Positions 421-14,725 of a DNA stretch of 14,725 bases are shown piece by piece. The stretch's first letter is position 1. The number at the start of each line of letters is the position of its first letter. The stretch comes from a virus, in UHGV virus genome UHGV-1738303. One strand, given 5' to 3'. Position numbers and translations under genes: made by a program. The notes beneath the pieces were generated by a model. The model did not search any database, had not been told where the DNA came from, and saw only the letters and a program-made list of their open reading frames with translations.

Positions 421-441
421 TAACTATTGAGAGAGAATAAA

Positions 442-690
442 ATGTTTAACAAAAGCAAAGCTGTGAGTCATGTAGCAAAAGTTGACAGTAAGATTGAAGA
501 ACTTGAGCGCATTCTTGCAAATGCTAGAGAATCAATAATTAAAGAAGTTGAAGCTGTTGAATCACAAATGCAGCACCTAATGCTTAAACGCCAAGAGCTA
601 CGTGAGCATCTAGAATATATTGAAACACGAGAGCTAAAGGTTAACAGATATTTTAAGGAGTCCAAATGTTTAACTCAAGAGAATCAGTAA
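442..690 (+). CDS. Hypothetical small protein, predicted coiled coil
   Basis: ATG at 442 preceded by the purine-rich TGAGAGAGA motif 6 nt upstream; the ORF track TTG at 427 is rejected as start. Translation is rich in E/K/R/L with heptad-like periodicity (IEELERILANARESIIKEVEAVESQMQHLMLKRQELREHLEYIETRELK). Confidence 0.5.
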   Translation: MFNKSKAVSHVAKVDSKIEELERILANARESIIKEVEAVESQMQHLMLKRQELREHLEYIETRELKVNRYFKESKCLTQENQ

Positions 691-1421
691 AAAACTGGAA
701 TCTTCGTTGTGGAAACACTCAAAAACAACCTTACAGTAATGAGTATTGGGAATCTTTGAAATCTCAATCTCTGTGTATGCTTGAAGAAGCAAAAGAGCTT
801 GTAAAAGCAATTGAAGAGAAAGACCCCATTGAGACACTGGATGCTCAGGCAGATTTGCAATATGTTCTTGACGGTTTGATTTACCTGTCACAACATGACC
901 ATAACGGTGCTATGAAAGCTGTTTGCCATAATAATGACCTGAAATACACAGATGACTATGAAGAGGCTTTAAAACGTCTTGCAGACATTGAAAAGCGTAC
1001 TGGTCAAGAGTGTATTATCAGAATGTCAGTAGTTGATGGTAAAGAGTGGTATGCGATTGTCCGTGCAGCCGATGGGAAGATTATGAAGCAATCAAATCTC
1101 CCTAAAGTACAGCTTGGTGAATACATTGTAGAGCTTGAAAGCCAAGAACTTTTTGTGGTAGTATCTGAGACATGCGTTATCTGCAAAGGTATTGTAGGTA
1201 GCTTAAAGGATTTGGGTGTAGATGGTTTTGTAGAAGTTAATCCAATTACCTCTAAAGCAGATAAAGACTTCTGTAAAGAGAATGGACTATGGATTGCAGA
1301 TATTGTCTACTATGATGGTGAGCAGTTCCATGTAACCTCATACCCGAAACTGAATTATGATGCTAATAACCTGAAGTGCTGGTTAAAAGGGGTTGGTTAT
1401 AATGGATTCACAGAACATTAA
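666..1421 (+). CDS. Hypothetical protein with possible N-terminal MazG-like all-alpha NTP pyrophosphohydrolase motif
   Basis: Strong SD AAGGAG at 655-660, 5 nt before the ATG at 666; 251 codons. Segment LEEAKELVKAIEEKDPIETLDAQADLQYVLDGLIY matches the EExxE ... ExxxDxLxxVL pattern of MazG/dCTPase-type pyrophosphatases; the C-terminal half is unassigned. Confidence 0.6.
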   Translation: MFNSRESVKNWNLRCGNTQKQPYSNEYWESLKSQSLCMLEEAKELVKAIEEKDPIETLDAQADLQYVLDGLIYLSQHDHNGAMKAVCHNNDLKYTDDYEEALKRLADIEKRTGQECIIRMSVVDGKEWYAIVRAADGKIMKQSNLPKVQLGEYIVELESQELFVVVSETCVICKGIVGSLKDLGVDGFVEVNPITSKADKDFCKENGLWIADIVYYDGEQFHVTSYPKLNYDANNLKCWLKGVGYNGFTEH

Positions 1422-1725
1422 TAAAGAGGGTGTGGCTCAGAAGAGCCACTTCTCAAACTACAATATTTCTATGACGGTGTTTATGAATGACCCGTTACTT
1501 GAAAAGTATGGTGAGACTCCAGATACACTTCTGGACAATGAACAAGTTTTAAAAGCAGTCCTGTACAAATATGGGATTGATATTGAGAAAGAATATTCCT
1601 TTGAAATCTGCCAACACAGGAATACTTTCGGTAAAGTTGTGATGGCTCCACTCTTTATGGGTGTAGAAAGGACTGACTATAGTTGGTTATATCTAAAAAG
1701 AAACTTGGAGAAATACCGTGTCTAA
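1402..1725 (+). CDS. Hypothetical protein
   Basis: ORF in frame 1; ATG at 1402 preferred over 1393 because of the purine-rich AAAGGGG about 10 nt upstream and less overlap with the previous gene. Confidence 0.45.
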   Translation: MDSQNINKEGVAQKSHFSNYNISMTVFMNDPLLEKYGETPDTLLDNEQVLKAVLYKYGIDIEKEYSFEICQHRNTFGKVVMAPLFMGVERTDYSWLYLKRNLEKYRV

Positions 1726-2056
1726 AGCAAAAAAGCTATCTTATGATGATATTGTCTCAGGTGCTAAGTTAGGCGTTGACAGCCTCGGACAAGATGTTAA
1801 GCACGGGGACACAGTTATGTACTGTGATGACCGAAGAGGTAGAAGTGCAATCTTGTTTGGAAGAATTGTTTGCAAGATGCGAGGCAATTACGTTGTTGCA
1901 GACATGGATGTGAACGTTACACAAAAACTTGAAACACTTATGGATGATAATACATCATCATGGTTCTCCCTGAATTGTATGCACACTTCTTCAGTCACAA
2001 AAGTAAGTGATAAGTTTTACGATATGTGGCAGAATGAGCAAATTTTCAAGATTTAA
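1718..2056 (+). CDS. Hypothetical protein
   Basis: 112-codon ORF; GTG start at 1718 with GGAGAAA upstream (alternative ATG at 1748); followed immediately by a terminator hairpin. Confidence 0.45.
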   Translation: MSKAKKLSYDDIVSGAKLGVDSLGQDVKHGDTVMYCDDRRGRSAILFGRIVCKMRGNYVVADMDVNVTQKLETLMDDNTSSWFSLNCMHTSSVTKVSDKFYDMWQNEQIFKI

Positions 2057-2060
2057 ACTA

Positions 2061-2085
2061 GGGAGCCTCTTCGGAGGCTCTTTTC
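2061..2085 (+). terminator. Intrinsic terminator-like hairpin (UUCG tetraloop) upstream of nrdA
   Basis: GGAGCCTC (2062-2069) / ttcg loop / GAGGCTC (2074-2080), followed by TTTTC; lies between the stop at 2056 and the nrdA RBS. Confidence 0.6.
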
Positions 2086-2102
2086 ATCTGTAGGATTCAA
2101 AA

Positions 2103-4337
2103 ATGATTAAGACAATTAAAAAATCAAACGGTACAGTAGTAAGCTTTGACCCAGAAAGACTGAATAAGTGGGCATCATGGGCAGATAAACGTGGAATTAT
2201 CTGGTCAGAAGTCACTATGGAAGCTATGAAACGTGTCTATGAGGGTTGCACTACAAAAGAGATGCACCAAGCCATGATTGATGTTTGTGTTGATAAACAA
2301 ACTCAAGAGTACTCAGATATGGCTGGACGACTGCTTTTGGGTATTATCTACAAAGAAGCCTTTGGAGGCTTTACTAAGGTTCCTACGCTGATTACCTTCG
2401 TTAAAAATATGGAGAGAGCAGGACTTTGGGAGAAGATGGACTATTCACAGGAAGAGCTTGAATATCTGCAAGGTTACATCGTACACTCAAAAGATATCTC
2501 TTACGGCTATGCAGTATTGAAACAGTTTAGGGACAAGTATGGTATCCGTGATATTAAAACGGGAAGACTTTTTGAGTCACCACAATTTATGTTTATGGGT
2601 ATGGCTATGAAAGCCTTTGAGAAGCAACCAAAGCACCGTAGACTGCAAGATGTTATCAAGCTGTACACTTACCTATCTGACCTGAAGATTAACGCTCCTA
2701 CGCCTTATTTAAACGGTTTGAGGGCAACTAAATCAGGTTATGCGTCATGCTGCTTGATTAAGGCAAACGATACCGCTGAATCACTTGGTATTGCTGCAAA
2801 GGTTGCTTATGATATGACTACAAAGCAAGCTGGTATTGGGATGCTGATGGAAACTCGCACCATTGGTGATGGTATCCGTCAAAATACTATTGAGCATATG
2901 GGTAAACTGCCTTATTACAAGCTTGTACGTTCATCTGTAGAGGCAAACAAACAAAAGAGCCGTGGTGGTTCAGCTAACAACTTCTACACTGCTCTAGACC
3001 CGCAGATTGAAGATTTACTGCGTTTGAAGCACCCTACAACGGTTCCTTCGAAACGTATTAATGAGATGGACTACTCCTTTGGTACAAATGATTATTTCTG
3101 GCAGTGTGTTCAGTATGATACAGATTGGTTGCTATTCTCTTACAAAGATGCACCAAAACTCTATGACATGTTCTACACAGCATCTGCTGATGAGTTTGCT
3201 ATGGCAGTTGGTCACGCAGTACATTCAGGAGTTAAGCACAGACGAGTCAAGGCTCGTGAAATTGCTAAGCTGTTTATTCAACAGCGTTATGCTACAGGTC
3301 GTGTGTATCCATTCTTCACTAACAACGCAAACACACATACACCATTTAAAGAACCATTGAAGATGTCAAATCTTTGTATGGAAATTGTGTTGCCAGTGTA
3401 TGGTTTTGAGAAAGAGACAGACCTTTACAGAGACGATGCTGTGAAAGAGGATGGTGAGGTGGCTCTTTGCTTCCTAGCTAGTTTGGTTGCAGGGAGAATT
3501 TCAGAAGATGAATACGCTGACGTTGCTTATTATGCTCTTGCAATGGTTGACTCCGTTATTGACCTTATGGATTATCCGTATCCGTCGATGCGTAACCATG
3601 TTCAGAAGCGTCGTTCTGTTGGGATTGGCCTTACAAATGTGGCTCATTACCTTGCGAAGAACTACGTGAACTACTCTTCACGAGCAGGTAAAACGAAGCT
3701 TCATGAACTTGCAGAGATGCACTCTTACTATCTACATGAAGCCTCTCTGAGACTTGCTAAAGAGCGTGGAGTTCCAGAGTACATGAAGTTCACTAAGTAT
3801 CCTGAAGGCTGGGTTCCTCCAAAGACAGCCAACAAGAAGATTGATGAGAAGCATGATGCAAAACTACGATATGATTGGGATGACTTAGCACAACGTATCA
3901 AAGAAAATGGTGGAATCCGAAACTCTGTATTAGAAGCTTACATGCCTAATGAGAGTTCTTCACTAGCAACTAATACGACAAATGGCTTGTACCCAATTCG
4001 TGACTTTATTTTAACTAAAAAGTCTGCAACTGGTAACGTGTTGTTTATTGTTCCAGATTATGAAGAGTTGAAGTATGTATATGAAATTGCTTGGGGTATT
4101 GACACCTTTGACCTGATTGATTGTTATGCAATTGTTCAAAAGTTCACTGGTCAAGCTATCTCTTCAGATTTCTATGTTGACTACGCAAAAGCTAAGAAGG
4201 TATCATTGGCTCAAGCTTTGAAGTACATGATTTATGCCAACTCGGTAGGTATGAAAACCATGTACTACCTTAACAGTCGCATTGGTGTAGGTAAATCTGC
4301 ACTGCAAGATGCTTATTGCGAGGGCTGCGGTGTTTAG
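2103..4337 (+). CDS. nrdA: Ribonucleoside-diphosphate reductase large (alpha) subunit, class Ia
   Basis: 744 aa; N-terminal ATP-cone-like segment (IKTIKKSNGTVVSFDPERLNKWASW), active-site NLCMEIVLP (Cys-x-Glu), C-terminal redox-shuttle cysteines YCEGCGV; length and motif order typical of NrdA/NrdE. RBS AGGA 7 nt upstream. Confidence 0.93.
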   Translation: MIKTIKKSNGTVVSFDPERLNKWASWADKRGIIWSEVTMEAMKRVYEGCTTKEMHQAMIDVCVDKQTQEYSDMAGRLLLGIIYKEAFGGFTKVPTLITFVKNMERAGLWEKMDYSQEELEYLQGYIVHSKDISYGYAVLKQFRDKYGIRDIKTGRLFESPQFMFMGMAMKAFEKQPKHRRLQDVIKLYTYLSDLKINAPTPYLNGLRATKSGYASCCLIKANDTAESLGIAAKVAYDMTTKQAGIGMLMETRTIGDGIRQNTIEHMGKLPYYKLVRSSVEANKQKSRGGSANNFYTALDPQIEDLLRLKHPTTVPSKRINEMDYSFGTNDYFWQCVQYDTDWLLFSYKDAPKLYDMFYTASADEFAMAVGHAVHSGVKHRRVKAREIAKLFIQQRYATGRVYPFFTNNANTHTPFKEPLKMSNLCMEIVLPVYGFEKETDLYRDDAVKEDGEVALCFLASLVAGRISEDEYADVAYYALAMVDSVIDLMDYPYPSMRNHVQKRRSVGIGLTNVAHYLAKNYVNYSSRAGKTKLHELAEMHSYYLHEASLRLAKERGVPEYMKFTKYPEGWVPPKTANKKIDEKHDAKLRYDWDDLAQRIKENGGIRNSVLEAYMPNESSSLATNTTNGLYPIRDFILTKKSATGNVLFIVPDYEELKYVYEIAWGIDTFDLIDCYAIVQKFTGQAISSDFYVDYAKAKKVSLAQALKYMIYANSVGMKTMYYLNSRIGVGKSALQDAYCEGCGV

Positions 4338-4350
4338 TTTTAACAACTAT

Positions 4351-4370
4351 GAGGGTCGTAAAAGACCCTC
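4351..4370 (+). other. Perfect 7-bp inverted repeat (RNA hairpin) without U-tract, between nrdA stop and next ORF
   Basis: GAGGGTC (4351-4357) / gtaaaa / GACCCTC (4364-4370); followed by TAAAAATAAC rather than a T-run, so more likely an RNA processing or stability element than a terminator. Confidence 0.4.
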
Positions 4371-4392
4371 TAAAAATAACTTTGGAGAGAGT

Positions 4393-4650
4393 ATGAAGGA
4401 CTTAATAGCAAATCATGAGTGGCCAATTTATCTGCTCTACAAACCTCGGAAAACGTTGTACTATGTGAGCAGCACAGGTATCATGATAAAGCAGAATAAT
4501 GACTTATGGGTCACTGGAGCCTCTTACATCTCTACAGCAGATGGTAAAATCTATGCAAGACCTTATGAGATGTTTAACAAAGAAAATTGGGAAGTTTTAG
4601 ACAGAAAACAAGCCTTAGAAATGATAAAGAAAGGAGAAATCACGCTATGA
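4393..4650 (+). CDS. Hypothetical small protein between nrdA and nrdB
   Basis: ATG at 4393 with GGAGAGAG immediately upstream; the track ORF from 4309 is rejected because it overlaps the nrdA 3' end and the hairpin. 85 aa. Its stop overlaps the nrdB start (ATGA at 4647-4650). Confidence 0.5.
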   Translation: MKDLIANHEWPIYLLYKPRKTLYYVSSTGIMIKQNNDLWVTGASYISTADGKIYARPYEMFNKENWEVLDRKQALEMIKKGEITL

Positions 4651-5720
4651 TTAACCAGCACCCAATCTTTTTAGGTGGTGAGAGAAAAACTTTTGACTCA
4701 CTTAATAAGCACTACCCAAAAATCTTTGAGCTTTATAAACAACAAAAAGCACAAGATTGGTCAGAAGATGAGTTCCCTTTTGAACAATCACGTCTTGATT
4801 TTGAGAGTGTTCCAGCATCTATGTCAGGTGTAATGCTTGAGATTCTTAAGTGGCAGTGGGAAGCAGATACTCAAGTTGCTAAGAGCTTGGCATTTGCCTT
4901 TGCACCATTTATCTCTGATGACATCTATGCAACTGCAATTATGAAGCAGTCTGAGATTGAGAACCTTCATGCTTTGACTTACTCAGAGATTGTGAGGCAA
5001 TGTATTAAAAACCCTGAAACAATCTTAGATGAGATTAACCAGAATGTTGCTGTGCAAGACCGATTAAAAACTGTGAATCGTGTTCTTGAAGAATTACTGG
5101 ATGAAGGGATAAACTACCGACTGAGTTATGTCCGTGATTCACTTCTGGACAAAGACCCTTTACACTTCCATAAAGTGATTCTGAAAGGTCTATTTGCAGT
5201 GACTGCACTGGAAGGTATATCTTTTATGGCATCCTTTGCATGTACTTTTGCACTTGATGCTCAAGATAAATTTCAGGGTATTGCTCAAGCGGTACAGAAA
5301 ATTATGCTTGACGAAATCCTTCACACTAAAATTGATATTGAAGTTTTAAAAGAAACTTTAAGAGATGATGAGTGGCAGAAAGCTTTTCAACAAGTTCTTC
5401 CAGAGATTAAAGTAATCTTAGATGAAGTAGTTGAAAGTGAAGAGAAATGGTCGTATTATATCTTCTCCGAAGGACGTGCTGTAGTTGGCTTAAATACAAA
5501 GCTTCTTCATGAGTGGGTTTACTATAATGCTGCACCACTGTATGATATGTTTGGCATTCCCAGAGATTTTGTAGCTCCTAAAGAACCACCTTTGAAGTAC
5601 ATGATTAAGAAGATGGAAATTGATAAAGAGCAGAATGCTAATCAGGAGCAACAGAACGGTGCGTACCTATTGAATACTGTTGTAGATGATTTGAATAGTG
5701 GATTTTTAGAGGTTCCTTAA
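4647..5720 (+). CDS. nrdB: Ribonucleoside-diphosphate reductase small (beta) subunit, class Ia
   Basis: ATG at 4647 with AAGGAG 10 nt upstream (track start 4587 rejected). 357 aa; diiron/tyrosyl-radical signature SEIENLHALTYSE (Glu, His at +3, Tyr at +7) plus further acidic/His ligand positions in the ferritin-like fold. Confidence 0.92.
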   Translation: MINQHPIFLGGERKTFDSLNKHYPKIFELYKQQKAQDWSEDEFPFEQSRLDFESVPASMSGVMLEILKWQWEADTQVAKSLAFAFAPFISDDIYATAIMKQSEIENLHALTYSEIVRQCIKNPETILDEINQNVAVQDRLKTVNRVLEELLDEGINYRLSYVRDSLLDKDPLHFHKVILKGLFAVTALEGISFMASFACTFALDAQDKFQGIAQAVQKIMLDEILHTKIDIEVLKETLRDDEWQKAFQQVLPEIKVILDEVVESEEKWSYYIFSEGRAVVGLNTKLLHEWVYYNAAPLYDMFGIPRDFVAPKEPPLKYMIKKMEIDKEQNANQEQQNGAYLLNTVVDDLNSGFLEVP

Positions 5721-5962
5721 TGACTTATGTAATTTACTCCAAAACTGGATGCCCTCAGTGTGAGACTGCAAAGAATTTTGCAAAAGCTCGTGGTATTGAC
5801 CATGTTGTGAGAATGTTAGGGCAGGATTATGAACTGTCAGACCTGATGGATATTGCACAGATGCCAGTTCGTCAGATGCCATTCATCATGAAGACTGATG
5901 GTCAAAATCTAAAACCTGTTGGGACGCTACAGAATTTTATGGCAGAGGTGAATAATGCTTAA
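5720..5962 (+). CDS. Glutaredoxin-like redoxin (NrdC/NrdH-type) for the RNR
   Basis: 80 aa; N-terminal beta-strand followed by the CPQC active site (VIYSKTGCPQCETAK), thioredoxin-fold size; start overlaps the nrdB stop (TAATG). Confidence 0.8.
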   Translation: MTYVIYSKTGCPQCETAKNFAKARGIDHVVRMLGQDYELSDLMDIAQMPVRQMPFIMKTDGQNLKPVGTLQNFMAEVNNA

Positions 5963-6161
5963 ACGCCTTTGGGAAGGTTTGGTTGTTGATGCACCAGCCA
6001 TTGTGATTGGTATGCTTGTTGTTAACCTATTTACTGATTTTGAACAAGGTTCATTGTTTGGAGCCATGCTATTATGGGTTATCTTTGAAATATTAGAGAT
6101 ACAGCTAGGCATAACTGAAAAACTAAGAGAAATCTTTGCGAAGTTTTCTAAAAAGATTTAA
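5955..6161 (+). CDS. Hypothetical small membrane protein
   Basis: 68 aa with two hydrophobic segments (VVDAPAIVIGMLVVNLF, LFGAMLLWVIFEILEI); GAGGTG 5 nt upstream of the ATG; overlaps the redoxin stop by 8 nt. Confidence 0.45.
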   Translation: MLKRLWEGLVVDAPAIVIGMLVVNLFTDFEQGSLFGAMLLWVIFEILEIQLGITEKLREIFAKFSKKI

Positions 6162-6168
6162 AATGAAA

Positions 6169-6191
6169 GGGTCTCTTCGGAGACCTTTTTA
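6169..6191 (+). terminator. Intrinsic terminator hairpin (UUCG tetraloop) upstream of nrdD
   Basis: GGTCTC (6170-6175) / ttcg / GAGACC (6180-6185), followed by TTTTT (6186-6190). Confidence 0.65.
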
Positions 6192-6209
6192 GCATGTAAA
6201 GGGGCAATA

Positions 6210-8354
6210 ATGAACAAAGTACAGATTATTAAAAAGAATGGCTCACTTGAAGAACCTGATATCAAAAAAGTTTTAGCAGCAGTCACAAAGTCAGCTAACA
6301 GAGTTGGTTATAAAGAGCTTCCACCAGATGTTACTCAAGCTCTTGAGTCAGCATTCATGAGGATTTTGGTAAAGTCCACTAAGCAGAATAATTTGCTTAT
6401 CTCGGTAAATGATATTCACAGTATTGTTGAAGGTGCTTTGGCAGAAGTTAATCACGAGATTTATGAGTCTTACTCAACATACAGAAATTACCGTAAAGAG
6501 GTTGCTCAAAATTGGGATGAACTCTACCAGAAGACTAAAGATACACTCTTCTTAGGTGACCGTGAAAATGCTAACTTTGACAGCAGTTTAATTTCTACGA
6601 AAGGTTCAATTATCCGTGGTTACCTGACTAAAGAAATCTTTAAACAGTACCATTTAACACCAGAGGAACTTGAAGCCATTGAAAAAGGATTTATCTATAT
6701 CCATGATTTAAGAGACCTAATTTTTGGTGGTATCAACTGTTGCCTGTTTGACATTGGTAAAGTCCTGAAAGGTGGCTTTGAAATGTCTGGCATCGAATAT
6801 TGTGAACCAAAGTCTGTACTGTCGGCCTTACAGGTTATAGGTGACGTAGTTCTTTCAGCAACTGCACAGCAATTTGGTGGTTTTACTTTAGCAGAGATTG
6901 ATAAGGTACTTGTGCCGTATGCTAAGAAGTCTCTACGCTATCATGCTGAGAAAGCAGCATCTTATGGTATTCCTAAAGAACATTACCACAATTATGTCAT
7001 GGAGCAGCTACAGATTGAACTGACTCAAGGTTTCCAGTCACTTGAAATGAAACTAAACACTGTACCTTGTAGCCGTGGGGATTTTGCATTCACAACTTTG
7101 ACATTCGGGCTACTTGACTCAGATATGTCCAATGAAGATAACCGACTGCAATATATGATTGCAAGTACTCTCCTAGATGTTCGTATGAATGGACAAGGTA
7201 AGAGCAAGAAACCTGTTGTATTCCCTAAACTGGTTTATATTTATGACCAGAAGAGACATAATGAGAATATCTGTCAAGGCCACCTGTACAGTAAAGCTAT
7301 AGAGTGTTGCTCTAAAGCGATGTATCCAGATTTCTTAAGTGTATCTGGTCATGGTGCTGTAGCAGAGGCTTTTGAGCGTTCTGGCAAGGTTATTTCGCCG
7401 ATGGGTTGCCGAGCGTTCTTATCTCCGTATCTTAACGAGAATGGGGAAGAGTTCTACGTTGGTCGTGCTAACATTGGTGCTGTATCTTTGAACTTACCAA
7501 TGATTTACCAGTATTCTAAAGAGAATGGTTTAGATTTCTGGAAAGAGCTTGATAAGTACCTAGAGATGATTCGCAGTTTCCACAAGAAACGCTACGAAAT
7601 GATTGCTAATATGCCAGCAAGTTCTAACCCTCTTGCATTCACACAAGGTGGTCTGTACAAAGGGACTAAGAAACCTACTGACAAGGTTGGTTGGGATATC
7701 GTGAAGTCCTTCACAGCTTCTTTTGGGGTTACTGCTCTTGATGAACTGTCTGTTCTTGCTGAAGGTAAACGACTTCATGAAGTTGGAAGATATAGTTTTG
7801 CATACGATGTTCTGGAATACATCAACATGAAAACTGAAGAGTTTAAGAACGAAGATGGCTTCTTGTATGCGGTATATGGCACTCCAGCAGAATCACTTTG
7901 TGGAACTCAGTTAAAACAGTTCAGAGATATGTTTGGCGTTATTAAAGGTGTCTCTGACAAGGAATACTTTACAAACAGTTTCCATATGAATGTTGCAGCA
8001 GACATCTCACCATTTGAGAAGCAGGACTTAGAAGAGCCATTCTTCCATATCTGTAGAGGTGGCAGAATCCAGTATGTAAGGGTAGCTAACCCAGAAAACT
8101 TAACAGCACTTAAAAGTTGTATTACCAGAGGGATGTTGAAGGGTTTTTATCAGGGACTTAACTTTGACTTAGCAATCTGTGAACATTGTGGTAACAGACC
8201 AAAGGCTGATGTTGAAGAATGTGAGGTTTGCCATTCACATGATATCTCTGTGATTAACAGGGTGTGCGGGTATCTTGGGTGGACCAAGATTAAAGGTGAA
8301 TCCCGAATGAACGATGCAAAAATCGCTGAGATTCGTGATAGAGTCTCTATGTAA
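6210..8354 (+). CDS. nrdD: Anaerobic ribonucleoside-triphosphate reductase, class III
   Basis: 714 aa; N-terminal ATP-cone-like KVQIIKKNGSLEEPDIKKV; C-terminal Zn-ribbon cysteines CEHCGNRPKADVEECEVCHSH followed by the glycyl-radical motif RVCGYLGW. Continuous reading frame, no intron. Confidence 0.93.
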   Translation: MNKVQIIKKNGSLEEPDIKKVLAAVTKSANRVGYKELPPDVTQALESAFMRILVKSTKQNNLLISVNDIHSIVEGALAEVNHEIYESYSTYRNYRKEVAQNWDELYQKTKDTLFLGDRENANFDSSLISTKGSIIRGYLTKEIFKQYHLTPEELEAIEKGFIYIHDLRDLIFGGINCCLFDIGKVLKGGFEMSGIEYCEPKSVLSALQVIGDVVLSATAQQFGGFTLAEIDKVLVPYAKKSLRYHAEKAASYGIPKEHYHNYVMEQLQIELTQGFQSLEMKLNTVPCSRGDFAFTTLTFGLLDSDMSNEDNRLQYMIASTLLDVRMNGQGKSKKPVVFPKLVYIYDQKRHNENICQGHLYSKAIECCSKAMYPDFLSVSGHGAVAEAFERSGKVISPMGCRAFLSPYLNENGEEFYVGRANIGAVSLNLPMIYQYSKENGLDFWKELDKYLEMIRSFHKKRYEMIANMPASSNPLAFTQGGLYKGTKKPTDKVGWDIVKSFTASFGVTALDELSVLAEGKRLHEVGRYSFAYDVLEYINMKTEEFKNEDGFLYAVYGTPAESLCGTQLKQFRDMFGVIKGVSDKEYFTNSFHMNVAADISPFEKQDLEEPFFHICRGGRIQYVRVANPENLTALKSCITRGMLKGFYQGLNFDLAICEHCGNRPKADVEECEVCHSHDISVINRVCGYLGWTKIKGESRMNDAKIAEIRDRVSM

Positions 8355-8362
8355 AACTTGAC

Positions 8363-8402
8363 AAGGTGATGTGGGTCTTGATAGGCTTACATCACCTTTT
8401 TT
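8363..8402 (+). terminator. Intrinsic terminator hairpin after nrdD
   Basis: 10-bp stem AAGGTGATGT (8363-8372) / ACATCACCTT (8389-8398) with a 16-nt loop, followed by a T6 run. Confidence 0.6.
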
Positions 8403-8416
8403 ATTGGATGTTAGAT

Positions 8417-8530
8417 ATGGCAGAGAGTATTATTGGGTTGTTCATAGGTTCTGTCTTACTAGGGTTCTTTTTAGGACTCTCTTATTGTGAATTGAAAGGT
8501 AAGTTAAAATGTTTAAGATATCAAAAGCGT
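8417..8530 (+). CDS. Possible very small hydrophobic peptide (37 aa)
   Basis: ATG at 8417; translation MAESIIGLFIGSVLLGFFLGLSYCELKGKLKCLRYQKR is a single TM-like segment with a basic tail. Below the ORF-track size cutoff, no clear SD, overlaps the next ORF in another frame. Confidence 0.2.
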
Positions 8531-8709
8531 TGATATACATACTCCATATTCTAGTCTTCTTCTTTGGGGTTAGTGTTATGGTATGGGGTTTTTCAGACCC
8601 ACAATGGGGTTTCTCATATCATGGTCAGATGGATTTATGGTCATGCTTCAAGCCATTTTTAGGGTTAGTCATAGCATTCAGTGCATTGCCAACTAAGGTG
8701 AAATTATGA
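8509..8709 (+). CDS. Hypothetical small membrane protein
   Basis: 66 aa with two hydrophobic stretches (ALIYILHILVFFFGVSVMVWGF, FLGLVIAFSAL); GAAAGG upstream; its stop overlaps the next start (ATGA). Confidence 0.4.
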   Translation: MFKISKALIYILHILVFFFGVSVMVWGFSDPQWGFSYHGQMDLWSCFKPFLGLVIAFSALPTKVKL

Positions 8710-9101
8710 TTAAGTTGAACAAAAAACAGTTAGAGTGGATTAAAGATTATGCCTCAGAGTGTGGCTCTTGCGAAAAGAATCACGTAAGATATTCAACATT
8801 CCATACGACCTTCACATTGTACATCAGCGACAACGTTCTAAGTGATTCTGTAGAAGATGGTGTAGCATTGCCTAATGAATTGCTTGACAAATTAGCTGTA
8901 GTCACTGGAACTTGGTCTGAAGAAGACGGTCATGAACTATCTAACGATGTTGTTTTCTACAGTCTTGAAAATATTATGAATCCAGAGTACATTATGCTAA
9001 TGACTTGCGCACAAGATTGTGTACCATTACAAAACTTCATTAAAGAACACTGTGAAGAATTTATTACTAAACAGGTTCCTTGTCAGGTGGTGTTTGAATG
9101 A
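8706..9101 (+). CDS. Hypothetical protein, Cys-containing
   Basis: 131 aa; CGSCEKNH and later CAQDC / HCEE / PCQ residues could form a metal site; ATGA overlap at both ends indicates translational coupling. Confidence 0.5.
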   Translation: MIKLNKKQLEWIKDYASECGSCEKNHVRYSTFHTTFTLYISDNVLSDSVEDGVALPNELLDKLAVVTGTWSEEDGHELSNDVVFYSLENIMNPEYIMLMTCAQDCVPLQNFIKEHCEEFITKQVPCQVVFE

Positions 9102-9397
9102 GTAAAACAATTCGAAGAAAAGGTTTAAAGAACGTTCATGGACTCTATGAGTGGAGAAATGAGGTACGTAACAGAGAAAATGCTTCAGATGTCTACTTCC
9201 ATTCTGATATGATGTCCAGAAAAGGTGGCTCTTATGACTTTACAAGTCAACCTTGTAGGGAGATTAAGAAGGCTACTAAACGTCTTACAAGAACACAAAT
9301 CAGGCAGCTTTCTAAGACATCCTTCTTAGATGAAGACTTTGACATTGATAGCAAGTCTCCAAAGAAAGCTGCTAAGAACACTTATATGTATTGGTGA
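9098..9397 (+). CDS. Hypothetical protein, basic
   Basis: 99 aa, Lys/Arg-rich; start overlaps the previous stop (ATGA). Confidence 0.5.
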   Translation: MSKTIRRKGLKNVHGLYEWRNEVRNRENASDVYFHSDMMSRKGGSYDFTSQPCREIKKATKRLTRTQIRQLSKTSFLDEDFDIDSKSPKKAAKNTYMYW

Positions 9398-9406
9398 GGT
9401 AACTAG

Positions 9407-9892
9407 ATGAATTACATGGAGATTCGACCATTTGACACAGCTAATGGTGAAGGGGTTCGTGTAAGCCTCTTCGTAGCTGGTTGTAAGCATCACTGTGAAG
9501 GTTGTTTTAACAGGGAGTCTTGGAAGTTTAATGCTGGTAAAGAGTTCACTTATGCAAACCTTTATGGCATCATTAAGTTAATGGATGATAATGCCATCAG
9601 TGGGCTGTCAATACTTGGTGGAGAACCTCTGGATGATAGAAACATTCAAGAGGTTACCAACATATGCAAACGTATTAAAACCGTTTACCCAGAAAAATCT
9701 ATCTGGCTCTGGACAGGTTTTCAGTTACATGAAAAAATTCACCTTGATGTGATGAAATATGTTGACGTGGTGATTGATGGTAAGTATGATTCGTCTAAAC
9801 CAACAGTTAAACCATATCGTGGTTCTGATAACCAAAACCTCTGGAGAAAAGAGTACGGATGGCAAGGTGATTGTCAGTGGAGAGCAGAGTGA
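9407..9892 (+). CDS. nrdG: Anaerobic ribonucleotide reductase activating protein (radical SAM)
   Basis: 161 aa; radical-SAM cluster motif CKHHCEGC (CX3CX2C) in SLFVAGCKHHCEGCFN; glycine-rich SAM motif LGGEPL; size and order match NrdG. GGTGAGG 7 nt upstream of the ATG. Confidence 0.9.
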   Translation: MNYMEIRPFDTANGEGVRVSLFVAGCKHHCEGCFNRESWKFNAGKEFTYANLYGIIKLMDDNAISGLSILGGEPLDDRNIQEVTNICKRIKTVYPEKSIWLWTGFQLHEKIHLDVMKYVDVVIDGKYDSSKPTVKPYRGSDNQNLWRKEYGWQGDCQWRAE

Positions 9893-9988
9893 TTATTCTG
9901 GCAAATGGACTAAGGTATAACTCCAATTGGTATCACTGAAGAAGAACTTCATAAGTTCTGTATTAAACTTTAATGAGAGAGACTAAAA

Positions 9989-10255
9989 ATGGGAATTTTA
10001 GGTAATATGAAAGCTGGATTCTTGAAGGCATTGGCAAAAGCAGCAGCAATTGTTTCTATGACTGGAAAGCAGGTCGGTGTAGATGCTTCAGCGGTTGCAC
10101 AGGTTCTTACAAGCCAAATTGAACAGCAGCCTTACATCTACGTAGGGCGTGGTAAAGGTGGTAAGAAACAAGCCCACCGCCAATCTGGTGCAGCAGCTAT
10201 TAAACGAGCAGCTAAGAAAGCTCGTAACCGTAAACGTAATAAGAAGGCTAAATAA
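9989..10255 (+). CDS. Hypothetical small basic protein (amphipathic helix plus Lys/Arg-rich tail)
   Basis: 88 aa; N-terminal GFLKALAKAAAIVSM amphipathic segment and C-terminal KRAAKKARNRKRNKKAK; TGAGAGAGA motif 7 nt upstream of the ATG. Confidence 0.5.
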   Translation: MGILGNMKAGFLKALAKAAAIVSMTGKQVGVDASAVAQVLTSQIEQQPYIYVGRGKGGKKQAHRQSGAAAIKRAAKKARNRKRNKKAK

Positions 10256-10257
10256 TC

Positions 10258-10578
10258 ATGAGCAAAGTTTATAACACTCGTAAATTACAGATTTTCTTAC
10301 TGTGCCAGTTTATGGCTAGAGAGCATAACTCCTACTATTGTGGTACAGGATTCATTAGTGATAATGATGGCTCATATCTCCCATTCAAAGAGGCTGTAAA
10401 ACTCTTCAATGAAGAGAAAAGCTCTGAGAAAGATATTGAAAAGGTTAAATTAACCTATAGTAAGAAAGACAAGAAGATTATCTGCCTAGATAACTTTGTG
10501 AAAGTTACCAAAGAAACTAAAGAGTTAATGGAAGAAAGTGAAATTCCATTCACAAGAATCTTGAAAGTAGCTCAGTAA
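10258..10578 (+). CDS. Hypothetical protein
   Basis: 106-codon ORF starting 2 nt after the previous stop; followed by a terminator hairpin. Confidence 0.45.
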   Translation: MSKVYNTRKLQIFLLCQFMAREHNSYYCGTGFISDNDGSYLPFKEAVKLFNEEKSSEKDIEKVKLTYSKKDKKIICLDNFVKVTKETKELMEESEIPFTRILKVAQ

Positions 10579-10590
10579 GCAGATACTATA

Positions 10591-10620
10591 AGGGAACTGT
10601 AAAGGTTCCCTTTTTATTTT
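10591..10620 (+). terminator. Intrinsic terminator hairpin
   Basis: AGGGAAC (10591-10597) / tgtaaag / GTTCCCT (10605-10611), followed by TTTTTATTTT. Confidence 0.65.
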
Positions 10621-10629
10621 GGAGATAAC

Positions 10630-11145
10630 ATGTATCTGTCAAACCTGAAACGTTCTGCTGCAATGTCAGTGTTAAGACTCAGTTTTGATGAGCGTCAAGA
10701 GTTTATAGACTCCCACAAATATGACCCTTCAAATTCTAATCACATGGTTCTTTGGAATCGTGATAACTTCCGTGAAAGAGCACTTGTCCGTTATTACCCA
10801 CACTACACAATAGATAACCTGTATGAATGGTGTGTTGTGAAGAACACCATTGCAACACTGAACAATCTTTGCAGGTATACGGGTAAGCAAACATTTACAT
10901 TAGGTCATCACAAACCTGTTACAAAAGGTGGTGAACATCACTGTGCAAACTGGTTTATCCAAACTAAAGCTGATAACCAGAAGCAAGGAGATAGCCTCCT
11001 AAGTATCCCTAAGATGACCTATGAAGAGCAAGAGAAATATATCAAAAATAATATGCCAGATGTGCTTGACAACAACTATACAGATTTGGCAATATCTCTC
11101 CTGTTGAAGTTCGAGACAGTTTATAGGGCAACTTATAATGGCTAA
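10630..11145 (+). CDS. HNH-family endonuclease (possible free-standing homing endonuclease)
   Basis: 171 aa; HNH-like core CRYTGKQTFTLGHHKPVTKGGEHHCANWFIQTKADNQKQGD (His-His pair, GG, Asn ... Asn); GGAGA 4 nt upstream of the ATG. Confidence 0.65.
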   Translation: MYLSNLKRSAAMSVLRLSFDERQEFIDSHKYDPSNSNHMVLWNRDNFRERALVRYYPHYTIDNLYEWCVVKNTIATLNNLCRYTGKQTFTLGHHKPVTKGGEHHCANWFIQTKADNQKQGDSLLSIPKMTYEEQEKYIKNNMPDVLDNNYTDLAISLLLKFETVYRATYNG

Positions 11146-11416
11146 AGAAAAGTGGGAGATTTTACCATTAGTCAGTGAAGGAGGTAATGGTTGTGAAATG
11201 TACATGATACGTGGTCATGTTCCAGAGCCAATTGCACTTGAGATGGTAAACAACTTTACAGATGGTTCTTACAAAGACTTAGGCGAACCAACTGTCAAGC
11301 AACAATGGGTTAAACCTGTACCAGACAGCACAGGTAACTGTAGTGTACTTTATCACGTTGTAGACCCTGCAAAATGCAAATCTGCAATGGCAGTAACAAA
11401 CGTAACTTTTGATTGA
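11138..11416 (+). CDS. Hypothetical protein
   Basis: 92-codon ORF overlapping the HNH stop by 8 nt; its TGA stop forms part of the TGAGAGAGA motif preceding the next gene. Confidence 0.45.
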   Translation: MAKEKWEILPLVSEGGNGCEMYMIRGHVPEPIALEMVNNFTDGSYKDLGEPTVKQQWVKPVPDSTGNCSVLYHVVDPAKCKSAMAVTNVTFD

Positions 11417-11427
11417 GAGAGAAAACT

Positions 11428-12309
11428 ATGAAAACATCTATCCGTGTTACAGTTCATTCACCAACTAAAGGAACTCATGAAGAAGAGTTTAACATCATCC
11501 AATTTCCTTCTGGTGAGATTGGTGGACACTTTTCGCCAGAGTTTGTTGATTTCACTGCTTATGCAGCATCATCCATCAACAATGTGATTATGATTGTAAA
11601 AGGTTATGATAAGGATACATTGTTTGCTGTGGCACTTGCTAAAGAAGCAATTGATGATTTAATTCCTCATGATTATGCTTTAAAGACTGTCATCTTTTAC
11701 TACTTACCAAATGCACGTTATGACCGTCACATGTTTAAAGGCGACGCAGCAGCTTTAAAGGTTTTTGCTAAACAGGTAAATGCAATGGGATTTGGTGCAG
11801 TCTGTGCAGTTGACCCTCACAGTTACGTTCCAGATAACCTGTTTAACTGCTTCCAGAGTATTCCTCAAAAGGAGATTGCAGTCCACTATGCAAATGACCC
11901 ACTGGTTGATTACTTAGTAGCCCCAGATGCAGGTGCTGCTAAGAAGGTTGCAGAGACCGCTAAAGAGGTGGATAAACCATATATCACAATGTCTAAGGTG
12001 CGTAACCTTAAGACTGGTGAAATTACTGGTATGCGAATCCTTGATGATGTTGATTTGACAGATAAAACCGTCATGATTCTGGATGATATCTGTGATGGTG
12101 GTCGAACCTTCATAGAAGCAGCTAAGCATCTTCGTGAAGCAGGTGCAAAACGTGTGGAACTCTATGTAACACATGGTATCTTCTCTAAAGATGTTGAAAA
12201 CCTTCTTGACAATGGCATTGACCACATCTACACTACAAACTCTTTAGGGGAAGCTAAAGACCGTGGCTTAACACATTATGGTCAAGTTACTGTAGCAAAC
12301 CTTGATTGA
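11428..12309 (+). CDS. Ribose-phosphate pyrophosphokinase (Prs) family protein, divergent; candidate ADP-ribose pyrophosphokinase (Adps-like) of an NAD+ reconstitution pathway
   Basis: 293 aa from the ATG at 11428 (track TTG at 11413 rejected). Prs-family blocks: YLPNARYDR (cf. PYFGYARQDR), VDPHS (cf. VDLHA), VAPDAGAAKKVAETAK, VMILDDICDGGRTFIEAAKHLREAGAKRVELYVTHGIFS (cf. [38 protein letters not shown]). The ribose-5-phosphate loop reads DGGRT rather than canonical DTGGT, and the GFFD motif is missing. Confidence 0.85.
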   Translation: MKTSIRVTVHSPTKGTHEEEFNIIQFPSGEIGGHFSPEFVDFTAYAASSINNVIMIVKGYDKDTLFAVALAKEAIDDLIPHDYALKTVIFYYLPNARYDRHMFKGDAAALKVFAKQVNAMGFGAVCAVDPHSYVPDNLFNCFQSIPQKEIAVHYANDPLVDYLVAPDAGAAKKVAETAKEVDKPYITMSKVRNLKTGEITGMRILDDVDLTDKTVMILDDICDGGRTFIEAAKHLREAGAKRVELYVTHGIFSKDVENLLDNGIDHIYTTNSLGEAKDRGLTHYGQVTVANLD

Positions 12310-12318
12310 AACTTTATA

Positions 12319-12339
12319 GGGGCTTAAAAGCCCCATTTT
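12319..12339 (+). terminator. Hairpin (weak intrinsic terminator) between the Prs-like and NAMPT-like genes
   Basis: GGGGCT (12319-12324) / taaa / AGCCCC (12329-12334), followed by ATTTT. Confidence 0.5.
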
Positions 12340-12354
12340 GAGAGAGATTAAAAG

Positions 12355-14136
12355 ATGACTAAATCACTTTATGCAGTACCAGCAGGTTTAAATGCAGATG
12401 CTTACAAATCTGGTCATGTTTACCAGTATCCTAGCGCAACAGAGTACTTGATGTTCAATCTGACACCACGTAGCGACAAATGGTTTAACAGCCCCTTAGC
12501 AATTGACGGTGTAGTAGCTTTTGGTATTCAACGTTTTGTTAAAGATTACTTGATAGACCACTGGAATGCCACTTTCTTTGAACGTGATAAAAAAGAAGCA
12601 ATTGACGAAATCTTAGAAGTCATGAATGGTGTTCTGGGTAAAGATGCTATAGGTCGAGAGCATTGGGAAGCACTTCACGACTTAGGCTATCTACCAGTTG
12701 AAGTATACGCTGTAGAAGAAGGCACAGTTGTCCCTATGCGTGTTCCGATGATTGTTTTCCAGAACACTGTTTCAGGTTTCCATTGGGTAGCAGGTTATCT
12801 GGAAGATGCTTTCTCTGCTGAGATTTGGAAGGCTTGTACCATTGCAACTATTGCATTGCACTACAAACGTATCTGTAAGAAGTGGGCTGACCTTACTTGT
12901 GACAACGACTTGCATTTACCTTATCAGTGCCATGACTTTGCTATGCGTGGTATGTCCGGCTTTACTGATGACGCATTTAACGCTGTAGGCCACTTAACCA
13001 GCTTTAAAGGAACTGATAGCTTTCCTGCTGTGTATACGGCTAAACGAATCTATGGACAGTCCTACCCAATCTCTGATATTGGTAGCTCTGTACCAGCCAC
13101 TGAGCACTCTGTAATGTGTGCAAACATTGCTTGGGAAGGTGGTAATGAGTTGATTGAAGAAGAAAGACGCTTTAAAGGTGAGTTACAAACCTTCCGTCGT
13201 TTCTTAACAGAAACTTACCCAACGGGTATTGCAAGTATTGTTTCAGATACTTATAACTTCTGGAGAACTGTGTCAGAAATCTTACCAGCACTCCGTAAAG
13301 AAATTATGGAACGTGACGGTAAGCTGGTAATTCGCCCTGACTCTGGAGACCCTGTACATATTGTCACAGGTTACAAAGCAATCCACTTAGAGTGTGCTAA
13401 AAAGGCTTATTACGAGCACCTAAGCAAGCTAGAGGCAAGTGATACAATGCTGAACTCTGTCCTGAACATGAAGCTTGAAAACATTAACTATGGTATTGCT
13501 GGATGGCTACTGTCAGAAGGCTACGAAATGGTTGTTGACAGAGAAGACTTTGAAGTTGCTGATACGGTGATGTTGAAGAATGCTTATATGGTTGGTTCTG
13601 CAAACGTTGTAACACGTCCTGTAGCTGAGATTGATGGGGCTATTAAGACACTGTATAACATCTTTGGAGGAACTATCAACTCTAAAGGTTTTAAAGTACT
13701 GGATGAGCATATCGGGCTTATTTATGGCGACTCTATCACGTTGGAACGTGCAAACGAAATACTGAAGCGTTTGTATGAAATGGGTTTTGCAAGCTCTAAC
13801 GTAGTGTTTGGTGTAGGTTCTTACACTTACCAGTACATGACTCGTGACACCTTTGCATTTGCTGTCAAAGCAACTCTTGCAAGCATTGGTGGTAAAGAGA
13901 TTATGCTTGCAAAAGACCCTAAAACAGATAGTGGTGTTAAGAAGTCTGCTTTTGGTGGTGTAGCACCTATGTGGGATGGTGAAAATCTGAAAGCTGTAGA
14001 TGGCTATGGGTTCCAGAGCTTTGCAGATGCACTTGAACACCCAGCTTGTGCTTTGCGTCTAGTCTTTAGCGACTCTGAGCAGTTCGGTTACACAACTCTT
14101 GGTGATATTCGAAATAATATTGACAAGCAGCTTTAA
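12355..14136 (+). CDS. Nicotinamide phosphoribosyltransferase (NAMPT/NadV) family protein, long form; candidate nicotinamide ADP-ribose transferase (Namat-like)
   Basis: 593 aa; NAMPT blocks LNADAYKSGH (cf. LATDSYKVTH), HDFAMRG (cf. HDFGYRG), SFKGTDS (cf. NFKGTDT), VPATEHS (cf. VPAAEHS), IVSDTYN (cf. VVSDSYD), VIRPDSGDP (cf. IIRPDSGNP), LIYGDSI, FGVGS. About 100 extra residues relative to typical 470-495 aa NAMPTs, apparently inserted between the RPDSGDP and GD motifs. Confidence 0.88.
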   Translation: MTKSLYAVPAGLNADAYKSGHVYQYPSATEYLMFNLTPRSDKWFNSPLAIDGVVAFGIQRFVKDYLIDHWNATFFERDKKEAIDEILEVMNGVLGKDAIGREHWEALHDLGYLPVEVYAVEEGTVVPMRVPMIVFQNTVSGFHWVAGYLEDAFSAEIWKACTIATIALHYKRICKKWADLTCDNDLHLPYQCHDFAMRGMSGFTDDAFNAVGHLTSFKGTDSFPAVYTAKRIYGQSYPISDIGSSVPATEHSVMCANIAWEGGNELIEEERRFKGELQTFRRFLTETYPTGIASIVSDTYNFWRTVSEILPALRKEIMERDGKLVIRPDSGDPVHIVTGYKAIHLECAKKAYYEHLSKLEASDTMLNSVLNMKLENINYGIAGWLLSEGYEMVVDREDFEVADTVMLKNAYMVGSANVVTRPVAEIDGAIKTLYNIFGGTINSKGFKVLDEHIGLIYGDSITLERANEILKRLYEMGFASSNVVFGVGSYTYQYMTRDTFAFAVKATLASIGGKEIMLAKDPKTDSGVKKSAFGGVAPMWDGENLKAVDGYGFQSFADALEHPACALRLVFSDSEQFGYTTLGDIRNNIDKQL

Positions 14137-14150
14137 AAGTATATGATAAG

Positions 14151-14175
14151 AGGCTCCTACGGGAGCCTTTTTAAT
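14151..14175 (+). terminator. Intrinsic terminator hairpin after the NAMPT-like gene
   Basis: GAGGCTCC (14151-14158) / tacg / GGAGCCT (14163-14169), followed by TTTTT; the stem is the arm-swapped relative of the hairpin at 2062-2080. Confidence 0.65.
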
Positions 14176-14190
14176 TTCTGGAGAAAACTA

Positions 14191-14725
14191 TGAAAATCAA
14201 AGAGATGAACATTAACGTTGTCCTAGAAGAACGTTGGGAAAACATTAAGAAACCTGAAAATGGTCATAAATTCCTTAACAAAATTTTAGTAGCAGCTAAA
14301 GAAGAACTAACGGGTAAGGTTGCAGCAGCAATCACAATAAAGGTTTGTGTAAAGGGTCTTTCAGACAATCACCAATTTGCACTTGACGAGTTTAAAGAAA
14401 GGGCAGTTATTCGTGAACTGTCATGTAACGCAGTAGATGCTCAGAAAGAAGCTGGAAAAGAGAACATCCCATTCCATGTGCATTTACCTACTCGTTTTGA
14501 GCCTTACTTTGAAGTTCGTGATTTTGGAACTGGATTAACTCATGACAAAGTTATGAGCTTGTACCTAAACTACGGGGCTTCTACAAAGAATGACTCCAAT
14601 GACTACATTGGTGCAATGGGTATCGGCTCAAAGTCACCATTTGCAATTGCTCAGTCATTCACAGTATCTAGCTATGTTGATGGTGTTGTTAATAAGTACT
14701 CTGTTTACCTTGAGAATGGTATCCC
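14191..14725 (+). CDS. rIIA: rIIA-like protein, N-terminal GHKL/Bergerat ATPase-like domain (3' end beyond the window)
   Basis: GGAGAAA 5 nt upstream of the ATG at 14191; frame open to the window end. Motifs IRELSCNAVDAQ, FEVRDFGTGL and DYIGAMGIGSKSPF match the N-box and G-boxes as I recall them in the T4 rIIA N-terminal domain (recalled, not aligned). Confidence 0.75.

Follow-up and report, generated by a model that had tools for sequence, protein, structure and literature searches.

A predicted NARP1 cassette (Adps and Namat) in a Felixounavirus genome, orthologous to the NARP1 genes of phage Bas63

Introduction

Why would a phage carry, in a nucleotide-metabolism region of its genome, a gene for a Prs-like enzyme followed by one for a NAMPT-like enzyme? 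This question is raised by positions 11,428–14,136 of UHGV virus genome UHGV-1738303, of which a stretch of 14,725 nucleotides (nt), here called the window, was analysed. A first-pass annotation had read the gene pair as a module of the NARP1 type, in which an ADP-ribose pyrophosphokinase (Adps) and a nicotinamide ADP-ribose transferase (Namat) rebuild nicotinamide adenine dinucleotide (NAD+) from the products of NAD+-cleaving immune effectors. The results described here argue strongly for this reading.

NARP1 was first described in 2024 and has since been characterized structurally. In vivo work on the pathway was done with the BASEL phage Bas63 (JohannRWettstein, MZ501086.1), where deletion of genes 79–80 led to a roughly 20-fold lower plating on SIR2-HerA and to loss of NAD+ recovery. 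ADP-ribose pyrophosphate (ADPR-PP; m/z 720.010) was detected solely when wild-type Bas63 met the defence system, and NAD+ rescue was independent of host pncC and nadR (10.1101/2024.02.11.579819). NARP1 overcomes SIR2-HerA, type I Thoeris, DSR1, DSR2 and SEFIR (Osterman et al. 2024), and in reconstituted assays it also acts against Kongming and DSR2/TTP (PMC12774641, PMC13586617). The two-step chemistry leading from ADP-ribose via ADPR-PP to NAD+ has been demonstrated for the enzymes of SPbetaL1, ICP1, DyoEdafos and P. foliorum.

Results

Both genes were found exactly where the first-pass annotation had placed them, in the same orientation and separated by 45 nt:

11428–12309, + strand: adps, predicted ADP-ribose pyrophosphokinase (PRPS-like), ortholog of bas63_0079; 293 amino acids (aa), assigned by identity to the Adps proteins of Bas63 and wV8
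12355–14136, + strand: namat, predicted nicotinamide ADP-ribose transferase (Nampt-like), ortholog of bas63_0080; 593 aa, assigned by identity to Bas63

The open reading frame (ORF) of the Prs-like protein extends from an ATG at 11428 to a stop codon at 12307–12309. This ATG is the start annotated in Bas63 and comes with a ribosome-binding site, GAGAG; called mechanically, the ORF would open at an in-frame TTG (11413). The ORF of the NAMPT-like protein runs from an ATG at 12355 to a stop codon at 14134–14136. The former matches phrog_619 ('ribose-phosphate pyrophosphokinase'; E = 1.6e-96) and the Pfam families Pribosyltran and Pribosyl_synth, the latter phrog_448 ('nicotinamide phosphoribosyl transferase'; E = 3.6e-202), the Pfam families NAPRTase and NAMPT_N, and NCBIfam NF006629. 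Given these matches, neither of the two is a chance ORF.

Adps of the window shares 230 of 293 residues (78%) with the product of Bas63 gene 79 and 291 of 293 (99.3%) with the Adps of phage wV8 listed in the supplementary table of Osterman et al. Namat is identical to the product of Bas63 gene 80 at 584 of 593 positions (98%). Compared with more distant characterized enzymes, the window proteins are nearer to Adps (32% identity to SPbetaL1 and 33% to ICP1) than to E. coli Prs (25%), and nearer to the crystallized Namat of SPbetaL1 (PDB 9w5w/9w5x; 47% identity, E = 5e-128) than to the KVP40-type Nampt of VH7D (30%). The gene order, from nrdA via genes 79 and 80 in the direction of rIIA, is common to the window and Bas63. 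Together with the Namat clamp motifs and the lack of a detectable adenylyltransferase gene described below, this synteny and orthology bear out the assignment as a NARP1-type Adps–Namat pair.

The Prs-like protein scored below all NCBIfam equivalog cut-offs for Prs, the best being NF002095 with 104.5 bits versus a required 296, and passed only the broad subfamily model TIGR01251 (122.3 versus 113). Judged from identities and NCBIfam cut-offs, it would thus belong to the Adps clade rather than being a bona fide Prs. When PDB sequences, among which there was no Adps entry, were searched with the Adps homolog, the best matches were archaeal and human PRPS; this did not discriminate between Adps and Prs.

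At the residue level, two functional elements of Adps could be located:

11995–11997, + strand: codon of the predicted catalytic lysine K190, aligned with SPbetaL1 K162 and ICP1 K185
12082–12111, + strand: pyrophosphate (PP, donor) loop D219–F228, DDICDGGRTF, placed by alignment and identical in Bas63

The two aligned lysines, K162 of SPbetaL1 (K162A is inactive) and K185 of ICP1, are essential by mutation (ICP1: PMC13586617). Structures of ICP1 Adps have in addition defined the acceptor residues R87, H121, D161, D212 and D213 as well as a remodelled PP donor loop and a phenylalanine lid (PMC13586617). The window protein possesses K190, R97, H131, D167, D219 and D220, all of which are identical in Bas63, and D223 is conserved alongside K190, D219, D220 and F228. 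Within the PP loop, DDICDG is identical to ICP1 residues 212–217 and F228 corresponds to F221, the adenine lid, while ICP1 positions 218–220 and 223 differ in the window and, among the three reference sequences compared, also in SPbetaL1. F26 and R97 (ICP1 F18 and R87) are conserved in the window and are both present in E. coli Prs as well; ICP1 F92 is replaced by M102 in the window and in Bas63 and has no equivalent in SPbetaL1. The adenine-contact positions of ICP1 are not suited to discriminate Adps from Prs because F92 and F223 vary among Adps proteins and F18 and R87 occur in E. coli Prs.

Namat and Nampt are separated by a selectivity clamp, which consists of the SCH motif GS-X-Phi1-X-Phi2-X-Phi3-TRD (with aromatic X) and the adenine-stacking SCL (PMC12774641). 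Both elements were recognized in the window protein, as were a catalytic histidine and a large insertion:

12469–12504, + strand: Namat SCL, R39–A50, including K42-W43; placed by alignment, with S40-D41-K42-W43 identical to Bas63
13105–13107, + strand: codon of the predicted catalytic histidine H251, in an invariant alignment column; H245 in SPbetaL1 (role: PMC12774641)
13390–13635, + strand: Namat insertion of about 80 residues (aa ~346–427), seen as a split PDB alignment and a gap in the multiple alignment
13816–13848, + strand: Namat SCH, G488–D498, GSYTYQYMTRD, which fits the Namat consensus (PMC12774641)

The stacking residue of SCL is either an arginine at the third position, or a lysine or tyrosine precedes the stacking residue; Bas63 is of the lysine type (PMC12774641). 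By contrast, VH7D Nampt has GGGLLQQLDRD at the position of SCH and a shorter SCL loop. The catalytic core of the window Namat is conserved throughout, comprising D15, Y17, F195, R198, D221, H251, R327, D329, R497 and D498 (D13, Y15, F189, R192, D215, H245, R306, D308, R399 and D400 in SPbetaL1 numbering). A second insertion of about 15 residues (aa ~258–272; window ~13126–13170) was noted. Both insertions are present in Bas63 and absent from SPbetaL1 Namat, ICP1 Namat and KVP40-type Nampt, and neither yielded a domain match. Coverage in tblastn searches suggests that the Namats of many phages of Gram-negative bacteria may likewise span the insertion region.

Sequence matches assign the window to the genus Felixounavirus, with 259 phage records aligning to the cassette region. 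Most of these are phages of E. coli, Salmonella and Shigella, e.g., wV8 and FelixO1. The closest complete genome is that of Felixounavirus LF82P1 (OZ035762.1), to which window positions 1–14401 are 98.75% identical; identity reaches 100% in the cassette region, limited to 10637–14401. The DNA of wV8 is 96.5% identical across the cassette.

A conventional salvage pathway via nicotinamide mononucleotide (NMN) would require an NMN adenylyltransferase (NMNAT). The first-pass annotation had seen none in the window, and Pfam scans agree with it, as window ORFs gave no PF01467, Nudix or NadR-type match. The check was extended to the complete genome of LF82P1, where 76 non-nested ORFs of at least 120 aa were reduced to 41 by setting aside structural genes and those of obvious function. 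Among the best 25 of 35 families obtained for these 41 ORFs (to E = 4.4e-4) there was no cytidylyltransferase-type NMNAT, Nudix or NadR-type domain. Likewise, the Bas63 annotations include no NMNAT, Nudix or NadR-like protein. Two VH7D proteins regarded as possible NatV seeds, gp156 and gp158, had no Pfam domains.

The sole substantive difference from Bas63 lies in the N-terminal domain of Adps:

11428–11900, + strand: segment with a divergent allele of the Adps N-terminal domain, defined by a drop in DNA and amino-acid identity relative to Bas63

DNA identity to Bas63 is 62–69% over 11412–11771 as compared to 90–97% in both flanks, the drop beginning at the adps start codon. On the protein level, residues 1–146 are 67% identical whereas residues 181–293, which form the C-terminal catalytic domain, are 96% identical. 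The window-type allele (at least 90% identity) was found in 155 of 254 related records, and 98 records fall into the 60–80% band, to which Bas63 belongs; the experimentally tested Bas63 thus represents the minority allele. Nei-Gojobori estimates of the ratio of nonsynonymous to synonymous divergence (dN/dS) range from 0 to 0.19 (around 0.1) for the N-terminal domain within the window-type class and from 0.05 to 0.18 for the C-terminal domain. Between the allele classes, the proportion of synonymous differences (pS) is 0.70–0.76, i.e., synonymous sites are saturated, and dN is about 0.23. The N-terminal domain allele is an old lineage which recombination has exchanged and strong purifying selection maintains; it is neither a decaying sequence nor the product of a recent arms-race sweep. 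Felixounaviruses possess at least two such deeply diverged alleles, and purifying selection acts on both. The mapped contact residues F26, R97, M102 and H131 are identical in both alleles, and the window-type Adps probably has the same function as its Bas63 counterpart. That the majority allele of the genus differs from the one tested in Bas63 goes beyond the literature accessible to us.

Features surrounding the two genes were as follows:

10590–10620, + strand: upstream intrinsic terminator (stem-loop 10590–10612, then a T-run); terminator scan, 9 pairs, -14.3 kcal/mol, z = -2.97
10630–11145, + strand: ORF171, phrog_3500 (E = 5e-93), function unknown; 171 aa, ortholog of bas63_0077
11138–11416, + strand: ORF92, phrog_4726, function unknown; 92 aa, ortholog of bas63_0078
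12319–12340, + strand: intergenic hairpin between adps and namat (hairpin 12319–12334), GGGGCU-UAAA-AGCCCC followed by AUUUUG; z = -2.65
14148–14178, + strand: downstream intrinsic terminator (stem-loop 14148–14171, then a T-run); terminator scan, 10 pairs, -16.6 kcal/mol, z = -4.10

The cassette had been described as two genes bracketed by terminator hairpins. Both hairpins proved to be real, but the unit which they enclose comprises four genes rather than two because the first terminator is followed by ORF171 and ORF92 before the Prs-like gene begins. ORF171, which has no Pfam match, displays weak similarity to HNH endonucleases (phrog_2214 HNH, E = 2.3e-6). ORF92 shares 8 nt with ORF171 and stops 11 nt short of the adps start; it is restricted to Felixounavirus-type genomes (tblastn, 231 records). 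We considered and rejected a role of these two ORFs as NARP1 accessories, as ORF92 is restricted to the genus and distant homologs of ORF171 occur in phages without visible NARP1 linkage. An accessory of the RyDEP type (RyR domain) was also rejected since no flanking ORF had such a Pfam match.

The intergenic hairpin (6-bp GC stem within the spacer 12310–12354) is kept in Bas63 with one loop change. With only four T residues following, it escaped the terminator scan; weak attenuation or a role in RNA stability is conceivable. In the relatives PMBT20, ESCO50 and VpaE1_ev108, a gene for an HNH homing endonuclease is inserted between adps and namat; the gene pair thus tolerates splitting.

The nucleotide-metabolism setting noted in the first-pass annotation was confirmed: the cassette is located directly downstream of nrdA, nrdB, grx, nrdD and nrdG, identified by synteny with Bas63 and, in the case of NrdG, also by Pfam. 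The nrdD gene (6210–8354) is uninterrupted in the window. That of Bas63, annotated as a joined coding sequence, is split at window position 7407–7411 by about 745 bp that carry a homing endonuclease gene, and Bas63 has some 157 extra bp near window position 9911. Two ORFs lie upstream of nrdA, one for a SegE-like GIY-YIG endonuclease (22–420; E = 7.5e-21) and one for a 251-aa protein with a pyrophosphohydrolase domain of the MazG/PRA-PH type (666–1421; E = 1e-5). Rfam and tRNA scans of the window gave no matches, and the number of promoter-like matches (16 versus 10.8 ± 3.4 expected) was not significant.

Downstream of the cassette, the window (14190–14725) lacks 441 bp which are kept by LF82P1, by the two LF82P3 records and by all other relatives listed. 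The deletion junction (14391–14401) carries an 11-bp repeat (TTTAAAGAAAG). The deletion joins codons 1–71 of an ORF of 111 aa, a homolog of bas63_0082, in frame to rIIA devoid of approximately its first 43 codons. Also lost is an ORF of 58 aa; its counterpart in Bas63, 0083, bears the annotation putative membrane protein. The sequence may stem from a natural mutant deleted in the rII region or from a sub-population, or the deletion may have arisen in assembly.

Discussion

Taken together, our data indicate with a probability of roughly 93% that the gene pair is a NARP1 cassette whose products rebuild NAD+ from ADP-ribose and nicotinamide and thereby counter NAD+-depleting immunity. According to this model, a host NADase effector of the SIR2, TIR or SEFIR type would cleave NAD+ to ADP-ribose and nicotinamide. 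Adps would then move the beta-gamma pyrophosphate of ATP onto the terminal ribose of ADP-ribose, yielding ADPR-PP and AMP, and Namat would couple ADPR-PP with nicotinamide directly to NAD+, with neither an NMN intermediate nor an adenylyltransferase being involved. Orthology, synteny and the conservation of catalytic and specificity residues are established for the window. That its own proteins, including Adps with the different N-terminal domain allele, perform the same reactions is what we infer from these sequence features.

Several points weigh against the NARP1 assignment. The enzyme assays and the phage genetics all come from orthologs. The N-terminal domain of Adps, which contacts adenine in the ICP1 structure, is the very part that is 67% identical to the tested Bas63 protein, and one of the ICP1 contacts, F92, is a methionine in the window (as it is in Bas63, the residue being absent in SPbetaL1). 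For the published conservation rule on the Adps PP loop, the comparison comprised three reference sequences. In vitro, Namat still makes some NMN from PRPP (phosphoribosyl pyrophosphate), so that a minor conventional activity is possible (PMC12774641). Finally, the Pfam scan of LF82P1 refers to the best 25 of 35 families, the other ten all having E > 4.4e-4.

Instead of NARP1, the two genes might encode a conventional salvage route, either NARP2-like or host-dependent, in which PRPP from the Prs-like enzyme is used by the NAMPT-like enzyme to form NMN, and host routes linked to NadR, NadD or PncC complete the synthesis of NAD+. The names given by Pfam, NCBIfam and PHROG, i.e., Prs and NAMPT/NAPRT, would fit such a route, with NF006629 scoring above its cut-off and TIGR01251 passing at the subfamily level, and so would the in vitro PRPP-to-NMN activity of Namat, which amounts to about half the level of human Nampt (PMC12774641). 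However, the adenine-clamp motifs of Namat are absent from KVP40-type Nampt, the Prs-like protein remains far below the Prs equivalog cut-offs, and Osterman et al. found no phage that has both NARP1 and NARP2. Because the 41 LF82P1 ORFs scanned include no NMNAT, and because a ΔpncC ΔnadR host did not prevent NAD+ rescue by Bas63, we consider the conventional route very unlikely. The position directly downstream of the nrd genes and grx might suggest yet another role, namely that the Prs-like enzyme raises PRPP for phage DNA replication and that its NAMPT-like neighbour is incidental. This is hardly credible in view of the fact that 97% of the Adps-clade genes have a Namat neighbour (Osterman et al.), that the SPbetaL1 and ICP1 orthologs convert ADP-ribose and not the canonical substrate, and that the pair is kept across about 250 Felixounavirus genomes even where a homing endonuclease gene has come to lie in between.

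A further possibility concerns the input of the pathway. The window-type N-terminal domain of Adps could accept a different or broader range of acceptors, such as a modified ADP-ribose, and thus represent an adaptation to other host NADases. The existence of two deeply diverged domain classes in Felixounaviruses, the breakpoint at the start of the gene, and the contact which this domain makes with the adenine of ADP-ribose in ICP1 Adps are compatible with this idea. Yet the four mapped contacts do not differ between the alleles, the divergence is old and, with a dN/dS of about 0.1, bears no signature of recent positive selection, and no biochemical finding points to other substrates. Moreover, Adps is reported not to use ADPR-1''-phosphate (bioRxiv 10.64898/2026.01.28.702374). 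An altered input therefore seems highly improbable.

An extension of NARP1 by a third enzyme, Adpp, deserves consideration. According to the same preprint, aRES defence produces ADPR-1''-phosphate, which Adpp turns into ADP-ribose for use by NARP1; the underlying NARP1-AP screen was limited to two genes around NARP1, and its table lists no Felixounavirus (bioRxiv 10.64898/2026.01.28.702374). Neither the two upstream ORFs nor the downstream ORF of the cassette matched a Macro domain in Pfam or PHROG. Outside the window, LF82P1 encodes a 261-aa Macro protein (record 63721–64503) whose gene begins downstream of namat, about 7.5 kb from its stop codon, and the protein is also found in Bas63 (bas63_0095, annotated as 'putative phosphatase') and in an Erwinia Kolesnikvirus. 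It consists of an N-terminal PF01661 domain (E = 1e-7) and a C-terminal extension of about 100 residues. It is 27% identical to the Adpp tested from Vibrio phage Gary (E = 2e-13) and 31% identical to the Adpp of Pseudomonas phage EM, whose gene adjoins namat in that phage (E = 1e-22). The invariant Adpp motif positions are present, conservation of catalytic residues being judged from invariant alignment columns. Members of the same Macro family occur in T4-like phages, including T4.

T4 is not known to have NARP1. Since T4 possesses the same Macro family, the link between Macro proteins and NARP1 is not specific. It is a tentative and rather doubtful proposition that Felixounaviruses such as the window phage and Bas63 run NARP1-AP with an unlinked gene for the third enzyme. 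If the Macro protein did dephosphorylate ADPR-1''-phosphate, it would feed the cassette, and these phages might also overcome defences of the aRES type. In the literature searched we found no mention of aRES tests with BASEL or Felixounavirus phages. The idea that an unlinked Adpp-like Macro gene could widen the reach of the pathway to aRES is beyond the literature accessible to us.

The first-pass annotation could not tell whether this variant had been characterized. It has been, at the level of an ortholog pair with 98% and 78% identity: the genes correspond to those in which NARP1 was discovered, in a phage of the same genus, and their allele class was catalogued in the original dataset. 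The finding is thus already known, and the window adds no new biology. It does illustrate that NARP1 can be recognized from reading a sequence alone. In the public annotation of about 250 Felixounavirus records the two genes appear as Prs ('ribose-phosphate pyrophosphokinase') and NadV/NAPRT ('nicotinamide/nicotinate phosphoribosyltransferase'). As NF006629 ('nicotinate phosphoribosyltransferase'; 469 versus 405 bits) and TIGR01251 would reproduce these names, NARP1 is systematically mis-annotated. The real meaning of the cassette would be a broad resistance to NAD+-depleting defences (SIR2-HerA, Thoeris, DSR and SEFIR). Many of these about 250 genomes belong to candidates for phage therapy or biocontrol directed against E. 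coli, Salmonella and Shigella.

Comparison with known systems

NARP2, consisting of a KVP40-type Nampt and a bifunctional Nmnat/Nudix protein, shares with the window cassette the nicotinamide-using Nampt fold and the ability to counter NAD+ depletion. It differs in that it starts from PRPP and not from ADP-ribose; the Nampt proteins are 30% identical (VH7D), the adenine clamp is confined to the window protein, and the Nmnat partner was not found in the window ORFs or in the 41 ORFs scanned of LF82P1. NARP1-AP (Adps, Macro Adpp and Namat; Vibrio phage Gary) has the Adps and Namat core in common with the window (bioRxiv 10.64898/2026.01.28.702374). By contrast, the Macro gene of the window's genome type is neither in nor beside the operon.

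Among the characterized enzymes, ICP1 Adps (PMC13586617) shares with the window protein the catalytic lysine (K185/K190), R87, H121, D161, D212, D213, the DDICDG motif and the F221 lid. The two proteins are 33% identical and differ by the replacement of F92 with M102 and of F223 with E230, and in loop positions 218–220, which are AAS in ICP1 and GRT in the window. SPbetaL1 (Adps gene 190, Namat gene 191; purified enzymes, with Namat crystal structures in PMC12774641) resembles the window in the order of the two genes, in the catalytic lysine (K162 and K190, respectively) and in the invariant Namat core. Its SCH, GSFTYQYNTRD, is of the same type as GSYTYQYMTRD of the window. Identity is 32% for Adps and 47% for Namat; Arg40 of the SPbetaL1 SCL stacks on adenine where the window protein has K42-W43, and the insertions of about 80 and 15 aa in the window Namat are lacking in SPbetaL1.

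Much closer are wV8 and other Felixounaviruses catalogued by Osterman et al.; the Adps of wV8 is nearly identical to that of the window, and its Namat is tabled as 'Adps-associated'. This wV8-type allele class is represented in the literature by its catalogue listing in the tables of Osterman et al., and we found no experimental report on it. The NARP1 locus of Bas63 (bas63_0079/0080; Osterman et al. 2024) deviates from the window in the N-terminal domain allele of Adps (67% amino-acid and 62–69% DNA identity). It further deviates in the stretch from namat to rIIA, which holds three small genes (0081–0083) in Bas63 and a single truncated fusion ORF in the window, and in an nrdD intron with a homing endonuclease, which is missing from nrdD of the window. 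The two loci agree in the following points: they belong to the same genus, occupy the same position between small ORFs near nrdG and the rII genes, and have in common the upstream ORFs (0077/0078), the intergenic hairpin, both Namat insertions, and the SCL and SCH elements of the clamp.

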